IMG/VR virus record: IMGVR_UViG_3300046011_007876
Span: 1-57,759 of that record
Direction: 5' to 3' (one strand)
Source: a virus
Lineage: Duplodnaviria; Caudoviricetes
DNA: 57,759 nt
The notes beneath the pieces were generated by a model. The model was not told the origin of the DNA. It saw nothing but the letters and a program-made list of their open reading frames with translations, and made no database searches. Shown here in pieces: positions 40,683 to 51,715 of this stretch (position 1 is the first letter of the stretch; every line of letters begins with the position of its first letter). A program made the translations under genes and the position numbers.

Positions 40683-40904
40683 ATGCCAACAGATATTACA
40701 ATTTCATCATTAAATGGTTCTTCACCTTTTGATGTTTATGTGTGTGACACCGGAATGACAACTTGTATTTATGTTAATACAATTAATAGTGGTGATGTAC
40801 CATATGTTTTTGAAATACCTTCTGTTTTTTCGACATTAAATAATTTTACGGTAAAGGTTGTTGATGATAACGACTGTATTGTAACATCAAATTTAGTAGT
40901 ATAA
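40683..40904 (+). CDS. Small Cys-containing beta protein (paralog of 48127-48354), probably virion
   Basis: PFDVYVCD....[15 protein letters not shown] at 40671-40677. Confidence 0.75.
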
Positions 40905-41959
40905 TGCCTTGTAGTAGTGTATATTGTATAAGTGGGACTGTGACGTATGATGGAAATTATGGTATCGCCCCAACCACACATAATGGTTATGATTACTTTA
41001 CTGGTGATACATTACCAACATATTATATTTTTTCATCGATTACATCTAACTCTTGGTGTTTATCAACCGTATTAGACGGTCCTTGTTTATTGTTTGGTAA
41101 ATCACCTTGTTTAAGTTCTTGTCCAGATTTATGTGACGATTTTTTTGGTACCGGTCCTTGTCTTACACCAACCCCAACACCAACATCAGTTTGTGATATA
41201 GATTTTGATGCAATTTTTGATTGTGCGGTAACACCAACTCCAACACCAACACCAAGTGTTACACCAACAGTGACTCCAACACCAACACCAAGTCAGACAA
41301 ACCCTTGTGGTGGTGTTAGTATGGTTGTTAGTGCAATATCAATATCACCAACACCTACACCAACATTAAGTTTAACACCGACTCCAACACCTGAGATTAC
41401 AAGACCTTGTAATTTTACTGGTATTGTAAAATTTAACACTATTGATGATTTCTTGAGATGTGCAACATCAAAAAAATTCAGAGATTGTTCAAATGGATTT
41501 TTATTTCACACTAGTGGTGTTGTTTTGGACCCAATTGGTAATTTACCAACTGTCGGTGTTGTATATAGAACAAATATTAATGGTGATTCGGTTTGTGTTG
41601 TTTATGATGGTACTGTTGAAAATATAAGTGGTGCCGACGATGTAACTCTTTTAGAAACAATTGGTTCAGAATCAACCGGTTCTTGTTCTATTTGTGTACC
41701 AATTCCAAGTCAAACACCAACTCCAACACCAACAAACACACCAACTCCAACACCAACACCAAGTCCGCTAACTTGTTTTGAGTGTTTGGTAACAAATAAC
41801 GATCCTTTTGGTGATTATACTTTTGACTATAAAAATTGTAGTGGTGAATTTCAAAGTGTTTTAATAAATGCTCAAGGTTCAGAAACAATTTGTTGTTCTG
41901 AAATACCTTCATCAACATCAACATTTACAGTAACCCAAATTGGTAATTGTTTATTATAA
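40904..41959 (+). CDS. Cys-rich protein with four (PT)n tracts, probable virion fibre/decoration
   Basis: Repeated TPTPTPTPS linkers between Cys-rich modules. Confidence 0.75.
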
Positions 41960-41988
41960 AAAAATATCGTCTAAAAAGACGATATTTC
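41958..41988. terminator. Terminator-like hairpin between convergent genes
   Basis: AAATATCGTCT aaaa AGACGATATTT. Confidence 0.6.
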
Positions 41989-42012
41989 AAATTATCGGTT
42001 ATTTAAACGATA

Positions 42013-48126: not shown

Positions 48127-48354
48127 TTAACTACAATATACTAATTCTTGGTAATCGCAGTTTATACAGTTTGATAATCGTATAACGACAGATGGATATG
48201 TATGAAATATTGGTGGTAATGGAATTATGATTGTTGGTGGTATGTTTGTATTTACCGTTGAAACTAAAATACAATTATTACCATAAGCATCACAACAATA
48301 AACATCAAATGGTGTTGACATTCCAGTAAGACCGGTTAACTCTATTTCTGTCAT
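48127..48354 (-). CDS. Small Cys-rich beta protein (paralog of 40683-40904)
   Basis: PFDVYCCD....CILVSTVN. Confidence 0.75.
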   Translation of the reverse strand: MTEIELTGLTGMSTPFDVYCCDAYGNNCILVSTVNTNIPPTIIIPLPPIFHTYPSVVIRLSNCINCDYQELVYCS

Positions 48355-48355
48355 A

Positions 48356-51300
48356 TTATGCCGGTCCTCCGTCAGTTATTGTCCAGTTATTAGGACCAGA
48401 TGTTAAAGTGTTTCTTGCAACAGACGCGGCACTTGGGAATGCACTATATTGTGAATTTCCACCACTAAATATAACATTTGGTTGTACTGTTTGTGCTGCC
48501 CAACCAATTAATAAGTTATTATAATTTGTAACAGATAGTTGTACGTTATCAAACATATTATTCATACTGGTTACACTTGTAATGTCCCAAGTTCCTAAAT
48601 CTTGTTCAAACTGAACTGCATTACCAAACATACCATCCATTGACAATACATTTGATGTGTCCCAAACTGAAATATTCTGATTAAAAATATTACATCCATT
48701 AAACATATTATTCATATTTGTAACATTTGATGTGTCCCAAGAAACAATAGGTTGATTAAAGTTTTGACATAAACTAAACATACCTGACATATTAAACACA
48801 CTTGATGTATTCCAATTATCAATAGATGAACTACCACCATTATTAAATAATACACAACCTTCAAACATACTTCTTGTTGTTATTACACTTGATAAATCCC
48901 AAGAACTAAGATTATCATTAAGACTAGTGCATTTACCAAATGTTCTATAAAAAGATTTAACACTTGATACATCCCATAAACTAACATTATTTATTGTTGT
49001 TAAAGATTGACAAAAATTAAATGAGTCTTGCATATTTTGAACACCGGTTAAATCAAACACATCAAGTGTTGCCGATAAATCTAAAGCTCTACAAGCAAAG
49101 AAATTACCACCTTCATTTCCAATTCTAAATTGACCCCAAGATATTACATTTAATATTCTACCAGCATTATTACCATCAGGACTTGGTAATGGACTAGGTT
49201 GTTGGAATGACCAACCTTCTATTGTTCCAATAATTTCAACAACATAATTCGTATTAGCGCTTGGGTAAACGTGTCTTCTTTGTGGACTATTCCAGGTATT
49301 AATAACATCAGATGTTCCGTCACCCCAATAAACTGTAAAATTATAATTACCACCTAAAACTAAAGGTAGTTCAATTTGACTATTAAAATATGAATTCCAA
49401 GTTGTTTTAAAATTATATACCGGTGTTGGTGACGTTGACGGTGTTGGTGTATTTGTTGGTGTAACTGTTGGTGTTGGTGTGTTAGTAGGAGTATTTGTTG
49501 GTGTAACTGTAGGAGTTGGTGTAACTGTTGGTGTAACCGTAGGTGTTGGTGTTGGTGGTAAACCACAATAAACGCAAGAAATATCGTAATCAATTAAAAG
49601 ATTAATTGTAATTTTTGCATCAGATAATAAATTAACATTTTGTGGATTACAAGTTGATCCGGTTATAACACACGTATTAAAGATTTGTATTGTATTTTCA
49701 CTATAATTAACAATAACATCACCAATACCATTAAATGTTTTTAGTGTGTTTACAACAGTATCAACCCAAAGAACGTCAGTTGGGAAATCGTTTATTCCTA
49801 TTGATGAGTAAAAGTTAATCTGTTTTAATTCACCATCAACACTAACTTCCAATATAAATTCAGCAGAATTTACTTTACAGTTTGTATCATCAAATGTTAA
49901 ATCATAAAATCCTTCATTATACATTTGTGAAATTCCTCTTTTTCCTATAATATCAGTTTTTTGGAATGGTGAAGAACATATGTTAAATGTTTGATAATTT
50001 GAGACTTTATTTGTTCCGTTAAGTGTTATTGATTTAGAATAAATACAACCATTATCATCTGTTATTTGTAGTGTATATGTGTCGGCTGACAATCCAACTA
50101 AATTTGGTCCGGTTTGACTTCCCACATTTGAACTCCAGTTATATGTAAATGGTGGTTCTCCATAATAAATTAATGTGTCAATTTCACCATCATTACCATT
50201 TACTGGTTGAGTAATTGAAAAATCAAAGAAAACCCCATTTGATGGTGAAATACTAAAGTTTTCTGTTTGTGTACAACCATTTGAGTCTGTAACAGTTGCA
50301 ACATAATTACCAGAAGTCAAATTATTAAACGTTGTTTGTGGTGACGGTGGATATCCTGTTATTTGATAACTATATGGTAATGTACCACCAGAAGAAGCAA
50401 CAAGTTGTACCGAACCATTACTTAAACCACAAGTTGTTCCGGTTGTTGATGTTGTTAATGTAAATAAAACAACATTAGTTATTGTAATTGATGTTGTATA
50501 TGTACAAGTACCATCAGAAATCGTTAGTGTGTATGTATCTGATACTAAATTTGGGAATGTTTTTAAAACTGAATTTGTCGTATCAGAAGTTGTACCACCT
50601 AAAGAATCGGTTAGTGTATATGTGAAGGTACCGGATGGTACACCACTATTTAAAACAATACTTATAGAACCGTTATTATTATTACAAGTTGAATTTGTTG
50701 AATTTACAGAAACTATTGAGAATGAGTTTGGTGTTATAATACTAGTTGAGTTTACAAAACTACAAAGTCCAGAATCTTGTACAAATACTGTAAAATTACC
50801 AGAACATAAACCAGTAAATGTATATGATTGTGAAAATGTAACAATTGTTTGACCATTACTACCTGAATAATAATAAGGTGCGGTACCATTTGCAATTATA
50901 ACTTCAATTTCACCATCACAATTAAAACAAGTTGGTGGTGTTGATATAAAAGAACCAAAAGTCACCGGTGTAACATCAAAAACTTGTGCTATTTGTGTTA
51001 ATTGACAACCATTATTATCCGTTACCGTAACAGAATAATTTCCAGCTATTAAGTTTTCAATATATGATGTTGTTTCGCCATTTGACCAAATATAAGTAAA
51101 TGGTGGATTACCGGTTAGACCGGTAACATAAATTTTACCACTACCGGATGTTGACACACAATTTGCATTATCAACAACGTAAAACCCAAAATTAATTGGT
51201 GTTGAGTTATAAACAATACAAGATTCGGATCTACCAGTACATCCACCACCATCATCTGCAATCACATAGTAAGTTTCTGGTGAAAGTCCATTAAATACGT

Positions 51301-51715
51301 AATCATTAGTAACACCAATAGCAGAATCAATTAAATTATCATTAATATCGTATAAATAAAAATCAATTGGTCCATAAACGTGTTCTGTTGTTGCAGTCAA
51401 TGAACCATTTATATTTCCACAAGTTGTACCTGTTGTTTCTATTGAAACACAAGTTCCTGATGATATATATATTGGCCAAAGTAATGAATCTGGTGTTGGT
51501 ATTGTTGAATCTATAATCTCAACAAAGTAACTACCGGCTGGTAAATTATTAACGTAATAATCAGTTGTTGCGGCAGATGTTGGTAATAAACCACTAGATG
51601 AAATTTCAGTAACTGTCCAAGTTGGTGCATCACCAGTGATACTAAAAAAAACTTCACCAATACCAAGATTAGAACAATCCCCAGTTATAGAATAATCAAA
51701 TATGTTTATTGCCAT
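48356..51715 (-). CDS. Adhesin-like virion protein: SprB repeats, (PT)n linker, PKD-like domain, DUF285/BspA-type repeats
   Basis: Several GxxPFTYxWS..L.AG.Y.VTVTD repeats; VYWGDG; WDTSNVTNMNNMF repeats. Confidence 0.8.
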   Translation of the reverse strand: MAINIFDYSITGDCSNLGIGEVFFSITGDAPTWTVTEISSSGLLPTSAATTDYYVNNLPAGSYFVEIIDSTIPTPDSLLWPIYISSGTCVSIETTGTTCGNINGSLTATTEHVYGPIDFYLYDINDNLIDSAIGVTNDYVFNGLSPETYYVIADDGGGCTGRSESCIVYNSTPINFGFYVVDNANCVSTSGSGKIYVTGLTGNPPFTYIWSNGETTSYIENLIAGNYSVTVTDNNGCQLTQIAQVFDVTPVTFGSFISTPPTCFNCDGEIEVIIANGTAPYYYSGSNGQTIVTFSQSYTFTGLCSGNFTVFVQDSGLCSFVNSTSIITPNSFSIVSVNSTNSTCNNNNGSISIVLNSGVPSGTFTYTLTDSLGGTTSDTTNSVLKTFPNLVSDTYTLTISDGTCTYTTSITITNVVLFTLTTSTTGTTCGLSNGSVQLVASSGGTLPYSYQITGYPPSPQTTFNNLTSGNYVATVTDSNGCTQTENFSISPSNGVFFDFSITQPVNGNDGEIDTLIYYGEPPFTYNWSSNVGSQTGPNLVGLSADTYTLQITDDNGCIYSKSITLNGTNKVSNYQTFNICSSPFQKTDIIGKRGISQMYNEGFYDLTFDDTNCKVNSAEFILEVSVDGELKQINFYSSIGINDFPTDVLWVDTVVNTLKTFNGIGDVIVNYSENTIQIFNTCVITGSTCNPQNVNLLSDAKITINLLIDYDISCVYCGLPPTPTPTVTPTVTPTPTVTPTNTPTNTPTPTVTPTNTPTPSTSPTPVYNFKTTWNSYFNSQIELPLVLGGNYNFTVYWGDGTSDVINTWNSPQRRHVYPSANTNYVVEIIGTIEGWSFQQPSPLPSPDGNNAGRILNVISWGQFRIGNEGGNFFACRALDLSATLDVFDLTGVQNMQDSFNFCQSLTTINNVSLWDVSSVKSFYRTFGKCTSLNDNLSSWDLSSVITTRSMFEGCVLFNNGGSSSIDNWNTSSVFNMSGMFSLCQNFNQPIVSWDTSNVTNMNNMFNGCNIFNQNISVWDTSNVLSMDGMFGNAVQFEQDLGTWDITSVTSMNNMFDNVQLSVTNYNNLLIGWAAQTVQPNVIFSGGNSQYSAFPSAASVARNTLTSGPNNWTITDGGPA

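Follow-up and report, generated by a model that had tools for sequence, protein, structure and literature searches.

Mycobacteriophages encode their own glycosyltransferases, and glycans reportedly decorate the C-terminal ends of their capsid and tail-tube subunits (Freeman et al. 2023, Cell Host Microbe 31:1216, as quoted in PMC12619734). As far as the quoted account goes, these phages are actinobacteriophages in which glycosylation is proven, whereas we infer it for the phages considered here, which carry an enzyme of PHROG 4417 and whose hosts are Bacillota and, probably, Bacteroidota. The Bacillota carriers resemble mycobacteriophages in that their threonine tails are likewise C-terminal on capsid and tail-tube proteins. 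However, compared with what is quoted of the mycobacteriophage case, the proposed acceptor differs in being a tag that can be recognised as poly-Thr or (PT)n, and in the 57.8-kb stretch of DNA analysed here (the window) this tag lies inside fibre-like proteins as a linker, unlike the C-terminal glycans.

Other phage glycosyltransferases belong to clusters that combine a methyltransferase, a 5mYOX enzyme and a glycosyltransferase to glycosylate 5hmC; two of their GT-A enzymes resemble GT8 LPS transferases, and such clusters are noted near structural genes (Pyle et al., bioRxiv 10.1101/2023.12.21.572611). The likeness consists of a phage-encoded glycosyltransferase, in some cases GT-A/GT8-like, and the window also carries C5-methyltransferases. 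Unlike in the clusters described there, the enzyme of the window does not adjoin the methyltransferases and pairs with Thr-tract proteins across phages.

The plant enzymes HPAT (GT95) and SGT1 (GT96) embody the idea that is proposed here as well: a GT-A enzyme adds sugars to hydroxy-amino acids of extended structural proteins, within repeats rich in Pro, Ser or Thr. They are eukaryotic and anchored in the Golgi or ER membrane, and their acceptors are Hyp or Ser, whereas Thr is the proposed acceptor of the phage transferase. The likeness of its motifs to those of HPAT/SGT1 is a presumed one, put forward in the earlier note. The label "HPAT/SGT1-like" given in the earlier note was not borne out: the Pfam HPAT model PF23452 has no match to the transferase of the window and does not figure in the family lists of 169 other members (89 + 80). 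Faint signals in its favour are a match of only E 0.09 in two of the 52 relatives (Pfam search) and one ESM Atlas cluster of look-alikes, in which 10% of the proteins carry PF23452. The fold matches listed for the transferase (Foldseek and a Z-scored fold search) include no solved GT95/GT96 structure, so that a remote relation to GT95/GT96 may exist.

A conserved GT-A transferase

By sequence, the transferase (Table 1) joins PHROG 4417 only (E 3.4e-70, PHROG search), a family annotated "unknown function"; no family was matched in Pfam and NCBIfam. Its motifs are, in order, PYFHWQ (aa 14-19), YIPSIKPYLISKWL (aa 75-88), HDADIIF (with D102 and D104), SGGGQY (aa 177-182) and QFWTAEMW (aa 221-228). 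An alignment with 52 relatives, each 31-53% identical to the transferase, revealed that Y75, D102, D104, G179, W223 and H266 are invariant and that Y15, W18, Q19, G178, Q181, Q221, M227 and W228 are conserved in at least 90% of the sequences. Therefore, the five ordered motifs that the earlier note had pointed out in this ORF coincide with conserved positions and are the conserved core of the family, not chance strings.

The AF2 model of the transferase (pLDDT 97.0, pTM 0.94) has glycogenin-1 as its nearest solved fold (Z 15.2, rmsd 3.4 over 227 residues), followed by the Skp1 alpha-galactosyltransferase (6mw8, Z 14.3), LgtC (Z 14.0), the UGGT catalytic domain (Z 13.8) and GlyE (Z 13.7). Foldseek concurs on the GT-A neighbours, with TM-scores of only 0.36-0.48. 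This confident GT-A fold and the invariant DxD uphold the assignment of the ORF as a glycosyltransferase. The closest solved folds are GT8/GT24-type retaining enzymes, and the modelled fold suggests a retaining mechanism. GT8 enzymes bind Mn through DxD and His; the transferase shares the DxD with the GT8 clan, and a His in the C-terminal half of the protein is conserved throughout its family alignment. Glycogenin, the Skp1 galactosyltransferase and GlyE (5gvv), which align with the transferase over 210-227 residues, are all cytoplasmic and have polypeptide-linked acceptors; GlyE is part of the pneumococcal serine-rich-repeat adhesin pathway. However, sequence identity to these GT8-clan matches is only 8-12% and Pfam GT8 gives nothing at E <= 0.1 with the transferase; the likeness is one of fold and not of family membership.

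Table 1. Coordinates of the transferase gene and of its neighbours in the window
Feature	Position (nt)	Strand	Characteristics
351-aa Cys-rich protein, opposite strand	40904..41959	+	three PT tracts (nt 41228-41299, 41345-41392, 41699-41776)
924-aa protein	42669..45443	-	three PT tracts in nt 44616-44870 (44616-44678, 44688-44741, 44826-44870); poly-Thr tract aa 669-690 (nt 43374-43439)
535-aa protein, directly downstream of transferase	45477..47084	-	SprB; two T6 runs, read off the translation, aa 74-89 (~nt 46818-46865); T/S run aa 187-206 (nt 46479-46538)
Glycosyltransferase, GT-A fold, 325 aa	47097..48074	-	phrog_4417 match, AF2 model; proposed to O-glycosylate polypeptide Thr in the cytoplasm
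1119-aa protein, directly upstream of transferase	48356..51715	-	SprB repeats; (PT/VTPT)n linker aa 721-769 (nt 49415-49561); C-terminal DUF285
Conserved 1005-aa protein, heads co-directional gene row	51715..54732	-	no tracts

A tract was called where 10 or more residues of a 12-aa segment were T/P/S and 4 or more were T; the tract definitions were fixed after the data had been seen. Of the 74 stop-to-stop ORFs in the window that reach 100 aa, only 4 carry such tracts, all four located within 40871-51721 and surrounding the transferase. Both the tract positions and the adhesin domains announced in the earlier note were recovered: the former match the computed coordinates and the T6 runs, and Pfam finds SprB in the 1119-aa (E 6.9e-11) and 535-aa (E 4.5e-9) proteins, the former of which also matches DUF285 (E 1.6e-48). 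The 924-aa and 351-aa proteins belong to no Pfam or PHROG family, and the former has no tblastn match in the phage collection. No hydrophobic leader was seen, by eye, in the translated N-termini of the transferase and the four tract proteins.

The organization of the locus is retained in relatives: homologues of the 351-aa protein (356-1163 aa) keep its position and strand, the 535-aa homologue comes after the transferase in the relatives listed, and full-length orthologues of the 1005-aa protein (62-80% identical) lie upstream. The latter protein retrieves 2386 proteins at E <= 0.001, the 120 listed all being named "hypothetical protein" or left blank; it has no Pfam or PHROG family, and its poor model (pLDDT 51) gives no usable fold match. 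Alignments with relatives stop at aa 717-726 of the 1119-aa protein, where the linker starts (27 of the 30 best matches), and at aa 662-687 of the 924-aa protein, in the poly-Thr tract (25 of 30). The tracts of the window mark the junction of a conserved N-terminal part with a C-terminal part that varies among relatives. On circumstantial evidence, the four tract proteins, called structural genes in the earlier note, may be virion parts.

Pairing of the enzyme family with threonine tracts

In IMG/VR relatives of the same lineage, whose enzyme is 57-75% identical, the locus contains tract ORFs in 77 of 80 cases, and at 60 of the 80 loci one of them adjoins the enzyme gene; in the three relatives that lack tract ORFs, the sequence ends just past the enzyme gene. 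The earlier note had suggested examining co-occurrence across phages, and the outcome was strongly positive in both directions. Among the 77 phage records holding a PHROG 4417 enzyme, 14 were chosen to span hosts and not at random; 12 of them carry runs of at least five T in neighbour genes encoding capsid, tail or unnamed proteins. These runs often lie at the C-terminal end of a protein annotated as capsid or major tail protein (phiFL2B, iLp84, SA2, bIL285, 1706, VPE25, TPWB06, 4995_1 and CHPC836). The other two, SAC12B and LP65, have TTV(K/A)P and TETQTQ Thr-rich repeats in place of T runs. Small Bacillota phages carry the enzyme gene next to genes for capsid and tail-tube proteins with C-terminal poly-Thr tails. 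In bacterial genomes, a run of at least five T within 2.5 kb on the same strand was found at 31 of 80 enzyme loci vs 2 of 80 control windows (p = 5e-9).

In the reverse direction, IMG/VR loci were selected purely by a (ACN)9 match, with (GAR)9 (poly-Glu) as control. Among the matches listed, which are no random sample of IMG/VR, the enzyme lies directly downstream in 9 of 118 poly-Thr loci vs 0 of 120 controls (Fisher p = 0.0015). At the nine loci, all runs of at least six T belong to the ORF that immediately precedes the enzyme ORF on its strand, and the closest run is 96-271 nt away from the enzyme ORF; the nine enzymes are 30-60% identical to one another. Thr context occurs in about four deep clades of the enzyme-family tree, read without support values. 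Since the loci are mutually related, these counts overstate the number of independent events. Moreover, the pairing is not universal, since 49 of the 80 genome loci have no run of at least five T nearby and 23 of these 49 also lack a RiPP marker, several of these contigs being only 1.4-8 kb long. Our literature search found no paper on the pairing of this family with poly-Thr proteins.

Proposed function and alternatives

Given this pairing in many unrelated phages, the enzyme most likely sugar-coats capsids, tails and fibres. The best explanation overall, which we regard as likely, is that it glycosylates threonines in the Thr tracts of the phage itself. What the analysis establishes is the fold, conservation of the DxD and of the His, the spread of the family and its statistical pairing with Thr tracts; threonine as the acceptor, sugar identity and linkage are what we infer. 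The enzyme would be a soluble, cytoplasmic, metal-dependent GT-A glycosyltransferase that transfers sugar from a host nucleotide-sugar to threonine hydroxyls of (PT)n or poly-Thr tracts before particle assembly. In the jumbo phage of the window, the acceptors would be the linker tracts of the large Cys-rich SprB/DUF285-type fibre or adhesin proteins that flank the enzyme; in Bacillota phages, they would be the poly-Thr tails of capsid and tail-tube proteins. The sugars could provide a hydrated, extended, protease-resistant or shielding coat. The glycosylated Thr/Pro stalks envisaged in the earlier note are thus retained as regards the glycosyltransferase and its cross-phage pairing with Thr tracts, and lose the HPAT/SGT1 label.

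Alternatively, although this is unlikely, the enzyme could glycosylate a polypeptide outside the tracts (other residues of its neighbours or a small peptide), the tracts being simple flexible linkers that accompany fibre genes. PT linkers are indeed common in multi-domain surface proteins, and a linker role alone could explain the tracts of the window, located at domain junctions. Besides, LanC-like, lanthipeptide-dehydratase or C39-ABC exporter neighbours are found at 27 of the 80 bacterial-genome loci, and one clade of the family, to be found at 26 of the 49 tract-negative loci, occurs in lanthipeptide-like clusters that lack poly-Thr neighbours; these clusters are likewise a polypeptide context for the family. 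However, a linker role fails for the Thr runs of Bacillota phages, since these are terminal tails of capsid and tail-tube proteins and not inter-domain segments, and the close spacing of tract and enzyme gene in all nine reverse-test loci also argues against it.

The enzyme has a smaller chance still of modifying host teichoic acid, LPS or capsule, as prophage TarP/Gtr systems do, to block superinfection or change the receptor. Among the carriers are many temperate phages or prophages of Bacillota, and the teichoic-acid GT-A enzyme TarP appears further down the fold list (Z 9.6). However, in 10 of the 14 sampled records, the gene is embedded in the head or tail morphogenesis row, flanked by capsid, tail-tube and tape-measure genes, instead of occupying a lysogeny or moron site. 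The family is also carried by phages of 85-92 kb and 131-146 kb without lysogeny genes in the annotated stretches and by near-complete jumbo phages of 274-318 kb, and the sampled and jumbo phage records show no gene annotated as a flippase or membrane partner next to the enzyme gene. Envelope modification would, moreover, leave the Thr-tract pairing unexplained.

It is very improbable that the pairing is a by-product, with poly-Thr runs and enzyme gene sharing a mobile cassette but not related as substrate and enzyme, or the protein being catalytically inactive with a structural or assembly role. Small genes inserted in phage structural rows can be selfish, and the papers found give no biochemical data (no glycan, mass shift or activity) on any family member. 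However, relatives only 31-53% identical to the protein of the window retain the DxD, the His and some 25 other positions with little or no variation, which indicates a conserved active site. Furthermore, the Thr runs cannot all belong to one cassette since the proteins that bear them (capsid, tail tube, protease, small ORFs and large fibre-like proteins) are non-homologous.

Glycosylation of a hydroxymethylated base in phage DNA as an anti-restriction device is the least credible alternative: the window has three C-5 cytosine methyltransferases (27383-31778), but they lie 15-20 kb from the transferase, the family also occurs directly between capsid and tail genes in 36-41 kb siphophages, and the precursor-forming TET/JBP (5mYOX) gene is absent from the window and from three of three relatives that are 93-100% complete. 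The sole thymidylate-synthase-family gene of the near-complete relatives matches NF002496 with 334 bits (cut-off 325) and is not a hydroxymethylase, since it exceeds the equivalog thymidylate synthase cut-off; DNA modification, already an alternative in the earlier note, is thereby disfavoured. RB69-type DNA arabinosyltransferases are GT-B enzymes unrelated to this GT-A transferase.

In line with the proposed function, some members of the family are fused to other glycosyltransferases, including a PF11397 (GT60) domain and a protein O-fucosyltransferase domain. In the GT60 fusions, the GT60 partner might be the initiating enzyme and the PHROG 4417 domain the elongating one.

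Fold and family of the transferase

The most likely reading of the 325-aa protein, and one that we hold with reasonable confidence, is a cytoplasmic polypeptide O-glycosyltransferase encoded by the phage that would use Thr-rich tags of virion proteins as acceptors. Which sugar is transferred, how it is linked, at which sites and to what advantage for the phage are matters of inference. The earlier note had recognised five motifs in this protein and had likened it to the plant enzymes HPAT (GT95) and SGT1 (GT96). All five motifs are present and correspond to invariant or near-invariant columns of an alignment of 52 sequences (relatives 31-53% identical). 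For instance, D102 and D104 of the DxD motif are invariant in the 52 sequences, as is the equivalent Asp pair in 80 members from bacterial genomes (D116 and D118 of the first row), and H266 is invariant in the 52-sequence alignment. Judging from the alignment, D102, D104 and H266 would fit the DxD-plus-His metal site of GT8 enzymes, with H266 presumably equivalent to the GT8 His.

The AlphaFold2 model computed from the 52-sequence alignment reaches a pLDDT of 97.0 and a pTM of 0.94. A Rossmann-like GT-A fold is confirmed by 320 PDB chains at Foldseek E <= 0.001. Those among the matches listed are glycosyl- or sugar-phosphate transferases of GT-A type throughout, including WbbM, UGGT, LARGE1, the blood-group GT6 enzymes, glycogenin, LgtC and XXYLT1 (E ~1e-6 to 3e-5, TM 0.36-0.48). 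Furthermore, the VIA structure search returned 120 chains at Z >= 8 with GT8 and GT24 enzymes on top: human glycogenin-1 (Z 15.2, rmsd 3.4 Å over 227 residues), the Skp1 alpha-galactosyltransferase 6mw8 (Z 14.3, rmsd 3.3 Å over 210 residues), LgtC (Z 14.0), WbbM and the UGGT catalytic domain (both Z 13.8) and pneumococcal GlyE (Z 13.7). We take these top matches to be retaining enzymes of GT8/GT24 type in the CAZy classification. An alpha linkage of the sugar would be expected of a GT8-like fold.

Membership in a named family did not follow. The transferase has no sequence match to CAZy GT8 or Pfam PF01501 at E <= 0.1, and these are also absent among the families listed for the sets of 52, 89 and 80 relatives. 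The HPAT-like label was not borne out, the Pfam HPAT model PF23452 giving no match to the window protein. A six-frame scan of the window with this model at E <= 10 was empty, a weak scan whose controls gave no signal anywhere. PF23452 matches two of the 52 relatives (best E 0.09, below the cut-off of 23.9 bits) and is absent among the 25 of 38 families listed for 89 longer members and among the 25 of 28 listed for the 80 members from bacterial genomes. One look-alike cluster of the ESM Atlas carries it on 10% of its members. At the level of sequence, such signals are faint hints at most. As for SGT1 (GT96), no match of that name was obtained in any library searched.

The only full-length family match is to phrog_4417, labelled 'unknown function' (E 3.4e-70, 237.5 bits; residues 6-318 of 325, profile positions 3-290 of 293). 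Neither Pfam nor NCBIfam yielded a family, Pfam at E <= 0.1 giving only a sub-threshold DUF2639. A profile search for a solved relative yielded a single row at E 0.54. The sole match by phmmer against solved structures, AAR2 over the C-terminal 48 residues (E 0.003), was judged spurious. The most fitting description of PHROG 4417 is a separate GT-A family whose architecture is GT8-like. Since its N-terminus shows no hydrophobic leader by eye, the transferase should be cytoplasmic.

Pairing of the transferase with Thr-rich proteins

The Thr/Pro/Ser-rich tracts lie where the earlier note had placed them. They occur in only 4 of the 74 window ORFs (stop-to-stop, at least 100 aa), namely the four large ORFs around the transferase gene: those of the 1119-, 535- and 924-aa proteins, in a minus-strand row that runs without large gaps from about 57.7 kb to 42.0 kb, and the 351-aa ORF on the plus strand. 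The DNA under the tracts consists of imperfect repeats of 3-42 nt with 64-95% matches, and GC varies between 24 and 33% along the window, an IMG/VR virus record of 57,759 bp for which CheckV gives a completeness of 20%.

Coordinates of window features discussed in the text
Feature	Coordinates	Strand	Remark
ORF without assigned role	56858-57667	-	gene row
ORF without assigned role	55683-56858	-	gene row
ORF without assigned role	54732-55640	-	gene row
1005-aa protein	51715-54732	-	gene row
1119-aa protein	48356-51715	-	SprB repeats and C-terminal DUF285 domain (Pfam)
325-aa transferase	47097-48074	-	PHROG 4417
535-aa protein	45477-47084	-	SprB repeat (Pfam)
924-aa protein	42669-45443	-	gene row
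RuvC-like resolvase	42013-42618	-	gene row
351-aa ORF	40904-41959	+	opposite strand to gene row
Calcineurin-like phosphoesterase	36648-37427
SbcC-like ATPase	32908-35286
C-5 cytosine DNA methyltransferase	30495-31778
Sigma-70-type factor	29112-29912
C-5 cytosine DNA methyltransferase	28231-29112
C-5 cytosine DNA methyltransferase	27383-28234
DnaJ	18399-19334		full length: J, Cys-rich and C-terminal domains
RNA ligase	826-1959		PHA02142-type OB fold

Alignments of the 1119-aa protein to its relatives end at residues 717-726 in 27 of the best 30 rows, where a 49-residue (PT/VTPT) linker begins (residues 721-769). Those of the 924-aa protein, for which neither a family (Pfam, PHROG) nor a match in the phage collection (tblastn) was found, end at residues 662-687 in 25 of the best 30 rows, at the poly-Thr tract 669-690. 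Because the alignments stop at the tracts, the latter can be viewed as the place where a conserved N-terminal part meets a C-terminal part that is exchangeable. This is the build of phage receptor-binding fibres. In three near-complete relatives, the distance from the enzyme gene is 22-27 kb to the gene for a gp25-like baseplate protein and about 48-55 kb to that for the tail sheath. From this gene context, the tracts at domain joints and the DUF285 and SprB domains, a fibre or adhesin role of the tract proteins is likely. Both in the window (40904-51715) and at five further loci (L159, L088, L114, L132 and L138), tract-bearing proteins are Cys-rich, with small Cys-containing modules after each Thr tract, and show no signal peptide by eye.

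Co-occurrence of the transferase with Thr-tract proteins across phages, expected if the earlier proposal holds, was found both from the enzyme to the tracts and from the tracts to the enzyme. Within the lineage of the window, we considered the best 80 of at least 594 IMG/VR stretches, whose enzymes are 57-75% identical to that of the window. Contigs reach 318,164 bp and three relatives are 93-100% complete (274-318 kb); this is a jumbo-phage lineage. Gene order is kept: 1005-aa protein, 1119-like protein, enzyme, 535-like and 924-like proteins, then a 351-like ORF on the other strand. Tract-bearing ORFs are present at 77 of the 80 loci and abut the enzyme gene at 60; at the remaining three loci, the sequence ends within ~640 nt after the enzyme gene.

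Outside this lineage, 14 of 77 phage records carrying the family were picked to span hosts. Thr runs of at least five residues are encoded by genes adjoining the enzyme gene in 12 of them. The other two, SAC12B and LP65, harbor the most distant homologues (26-27% identity) and have Thr-rich repeats directly upstream instead of Thr runs. The enzyme gene lies within the head-tail row, after a capsid or tail-tube gene, in 10 of the 14 records, and in phiFL2B, 1706, phiCTP1, 4995_1, CHPC836, SA2 and TPWB06 it directly adjoins genes for capsid or major tail proteins with a poly-Thr C-terminus.

Thr runs and Thr-rich repeats near the enzyme gene in the sampled phage records
Phage	Location
Enterococcus phiFL2B	C-termini of head protein gp43 and of gp48, directly upstream
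Enterococcus VPE25	major tail protein; unannotated stretch just before enzyme gene
Enterococcus 4995_1	capsid C-terminus
Lactococcus CHPC836	capsid C-terminus; major tail protein
Lactococcus bIL285	orf50, C-terminal T9
Lactococcus 1706	capsid/protease orf10, T9 end; 'major structural protein' orf13, T10 end
Lacticaseibacillus iLp84	capsid; 126-aa ORF (46% S/T/P); major tail protein
Staphylococcus SA2	major tail protein; small overlapping ORF (65% S/T/P)
Arcanobacterium TPWB06	major tail protein; small overlapping ORF
Clostridium phiCTP1	gp18
Lactobacillus Bacchae	three small neighbouring ORFs
Chryseobacterium MA9V-3	two upstream ORFs
Lactobacillus SAC12B	TTV(K/A)P repeats
Lactobacillus LP65	TETQTQ repeats; carrier orf51 annotated 'structural protein 2-D,MS'

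Two of these records show a particular arrangement. In SA2 (L004, 6111-6924) and TPWB06 (L329, 5158-5920), the major tail protein ends in T8-T9 and a small ORF, encoding an almost pure Thr/Ser/Pro stretch, overlaps the 3' end of its gene in another frame. The overlap looks like a candidate programmed frameshift, by which some tail-tube copies would gain a long mucin-like extension. In VPE25 (L328, ~5749-5850), four Thr runs (T5-T8) lie between the capsid-like and transferase genes where no gene is annotated; the record may have overlooked a small Thr-rich ORF here, or the capsid gene may extend further than annotated.

The reverse scan of IMG/VR started from nine consecutive ACN codons and gave 118 loci among the matches listed (997 kb), 92 of which have a run of at least eight Thr within an ORF. 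The enzyme is encoded at nine of these 118 listed loci versus none of the 120 loci listed for a matched scan with nine GAR codons (1,001 kb; Fisher p = 0.0015). Set against its base rate in phage records (77 of 50,697), nine among the 118 loci listed corresponds to a Poisson tail of ~4e-13. At all nine, every Thr run of six or more residues falls within the ORF immediately upstream on the same strand, the nearest run being 96-271 nt from the enzyme ORF. Their enzymes share 30-60% identity with each other and 31-37% with that of the window.

The pairing extends to bacterial genomes. Of 131 stretches the best 80 were taken, and 31 of these loci encode five or more consecutive Thr within 2.5 kb on the strand of the enzyme, versus 2 of 80 random control windows (p = 5e-9); where at least 2.5 kb of upstream sequence is available, such a run is present at 30 of 63 loci. 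With the criterion relaxed to at least 9 Thr per 20 residues, 32 of 80 loci and 4 of 80 controls qualify.

Other substrates and loci without Thr runs

The main worry among the alternatives is that the transferase glycosylates phage DNA, since the window encodes three C5-cytosine methyltransferases and since clusters of methyltransferase, 5mYOX and GT genes are known, outlined by Pyle et al. (bioRxiv 10.1101/2023.12.21.572611) as glycosylating 5hmC. Against this, Tet_JBP (5mYOX/TET) was found neither in the window nor in any of the three relatives that are 93-100% complete, and the sole thymidylate-synthase-family gene (PF00303) of these relatives scores as an equivalog thymidylate synthase. 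A source of hydroxymethylated bases, either 5mYOX/TET or a pyrimidine hydroxymethylase, was thus not found in the three near-complete relatives, nor, as far as Tet_JBP is concerned, in the window. Moreover, the family is also carried by siphophages of 36-41 kb, where its gene lies between capsid and tail genes. A separate lead, a supposed likeness of the RB69-type DNA arabinosyltransferases to those of plants, was dropped because the former appear in the source consulted as GT-B enzymes. The three methyltransferase genes of the window (27383-31778) have a sigma-70-type factor gene between them.

The tracts could also be plain linkers, a reading that leaves unexplained why capsid and tail-tube proteins carry terminal poly-Thr tails. 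Modification of the host envelope is unlikely: the enzyme gene has a late-operon position and is paired with Thr tracts, and no lysogeny genes are present in what is annotated of the larger carriers.

Glycosylation of polypeptides is also what the loci without Thr runs suggest. No Thr run is found nearby at 49 of the 80 bacterial genome loci. At two of these 49, in Chitinophaga niastensis (L349, 3894-10107) and Sphingobacterium detergens (L409, 1624-10823), the neighbours of the transferase gene according to Pfam include a LanC-like cyclase, a lanthipeptide dehydratase C-domain, HlyD and a C39-peptidase ABC exporter. BLAST with these neighbours detected such markers at 27 of the 80 genome loci, 26 of which are among the 49 Thr-negative ones. 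The Thr-negative loci therefore speak for a different substrate that is itself a polypeptide, rather than against polypeptides as substrates. The transferases of these lanthipeptide-like clusters are mostly fused to a GT7 C-domain, and the gene content suggests that such clusters may make glycosylated RiPPs in Bacteroidota.

A tree of 108 enzyme domains was computed with FastTree (one of 109 was dropped, its domain being shorter than 200 residues), midpoint-rooted and read without support values. In this topology, loci with a RiPP context are grouped in a single nested clade made up of Bacteroidota chromosomes. Three other groups are almost wholly of Thr context: a Bacillota phage and prophage clade, the jumbo clade with the enzyme of the window, and a mixed clade of Bacteroidota-type phage contigs. 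Over the whole tree, 58 loci have a Thr context, 26 a RiPP context, one has both and 23 have neither. The 23 comprise several contigs of 1.4-8 kb as well as a group of long fusion proteins from Acidimicrobiia and Myxococcota MAGs. In the latter (L336-L343, L347, L348; P0157, P0172, P0145), the family domain lies inside proteins of ~1000-1400 aa together with GT60 (PF11397), F5/8 type C and protein O-fucosyltransferase domains; of the nine loci of this clade, only three have a neighbour rich in Thr (at least 9 Thr in 20 residues).

Distribution, significance and neighbouring genes

The family is widespread, with 1171 proteins in the 90%-clustered protein database (E <= 0.001), 825 among 1.84 billion 50% representatives, 77 in 50,697 phage records, at least 594 stretches in IMG/VR and 131 stretches in 185,579 species genomes. 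The 77 phage records name Lactobacillus (23), Enterococcus (21), Staphylococcus (11), Lactococcus (8), Clostridium (3), Lacticaseibacillus (2), Chryseobacterium, Arcanobacterium and Levilactobacillus (1 each) as hosts, and six name none. Carriers include Lactococcus phages 1706, bIL285 and CHPC836, Lacticaseibacillus phages iLp84 and PLE3, Enterococcus phages VPE25 and phiFL, Staphylococcus 6ec-like phages and Lactobacillus phage LP65.

Many members are 450-1400 aa long and have a second or third sugar-related domain. Further domains among 89 longer representatives include GT2 (8), GT7 C-domain (7), PF11397 'GlcNAc' (GT60; 3) and GT6 (3). Those among the 80 genome members include the GT7 C-domain (14), GT60 (7), F5/8 type C (7), GT2 (4) and protein O-fucosyltransferase (2). 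A second transferase domain was recognised in six of ten long members and in none of the other four. Fusions to further transferases fit the building of an oligosaccharide, a chain that the PHROG 4417 domain may start or extend.

Taken as a whole, we lean slightly towards the view that PHROG 4417 and the poly-Thr or (PT)n tag constitute a system for mucin-type O-glycosylation that is widespread in tailed phages and has hitherto escaped notice. In it, one cytoplasmic enzyme would recognise a portable Thr tag appended to capsid, tail-tube, decoration and fibre proteins in phages of Bacillota and Bacteroidota, from 36-kb temperate siphophages to 300-kb jumbo phages, and one branch of the enzyme would have been taken over by Bacteroidota for ribosomal peptides in lanthipeptide-like clusters. 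The C-termini of capsid and tail-tube proteins are reportedly glycosylated in mycobacteriophage virions. The likeness to that system is one in kind, a phage glycosyltransferase with acceptor tails on capsid and tail-tube subunits, seen here as gene architecture only. Unlike it, the system proposed here would rely on a different, unannotated enzyme family and a recognisable acceptor tag, and has a much wider host range. Within the titles and abstract openings covered by our literature search, most subscription journals and supplements lying outside it, nothing links PHROG 4417, homologues of 'prophage pi2 protein 34' or phage poly-Thr tails to glycosylation.

If this reading is true, a distinct system of far wider occurrence exists, a function can be given to a family that comprises at least 825 representative clusters and is at present labelled unknown, and the unusual poly-Thr termini of numerous capsid and tail proteins are accounted for. 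It would also bear on phage stability, on adherence to mucus or cell walls and on antibody recognition in phage therapy, and would provide a short genetically encoded tag and a single soluble enzyme for protein glycosylation in the bacterial cytoplasm. Carriers include laboratory and dairy phages amenable to testing, as well as an abundant environmental jumbo-phage lineage, for which one conserved neighbour of the transferase, the 1005-aa protein, has 2386 relatives at E <= 0.001.

This tract-free protein is well kept in the lineage (62-85% identity). It has no match in Pfam, in PHROGs or, by tblastn, in the phage collection, and no usable one in the ESM Atlas; the homologue search returned unnamed close relatives only. 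Its AlphaFold2 model from 39 sequences is poor (pLDDT 51), with confident folding only in residues 102-320 and 860-1005. Foldseek gave no match to this model at E <= 0.001, and the best VIA match (Z 6.3) is to a helical hairpin within a low-confidence stretch, from which neither a new fold nor a function follows. Ten further window ORFs have no PHROG match.

Besides these genes, the window encodes a full-length DnaJ together with a primase, a sigma factor and an SbcC-like ATPase. Its relatives G001-G003 are about 290 kb in size. By analogy, this gene content and genome size resemble those of the freshwater 'moraphages', for which Flavobacteriia are given as predicted hosts in the part of the source consulted (PMC12619734). 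The window also carries a gene for an RNA ligase. Within 31775-37427, the SbcC-like ATPase and the calcineurin-like phosphoesterase probably form a repair or recombination module.
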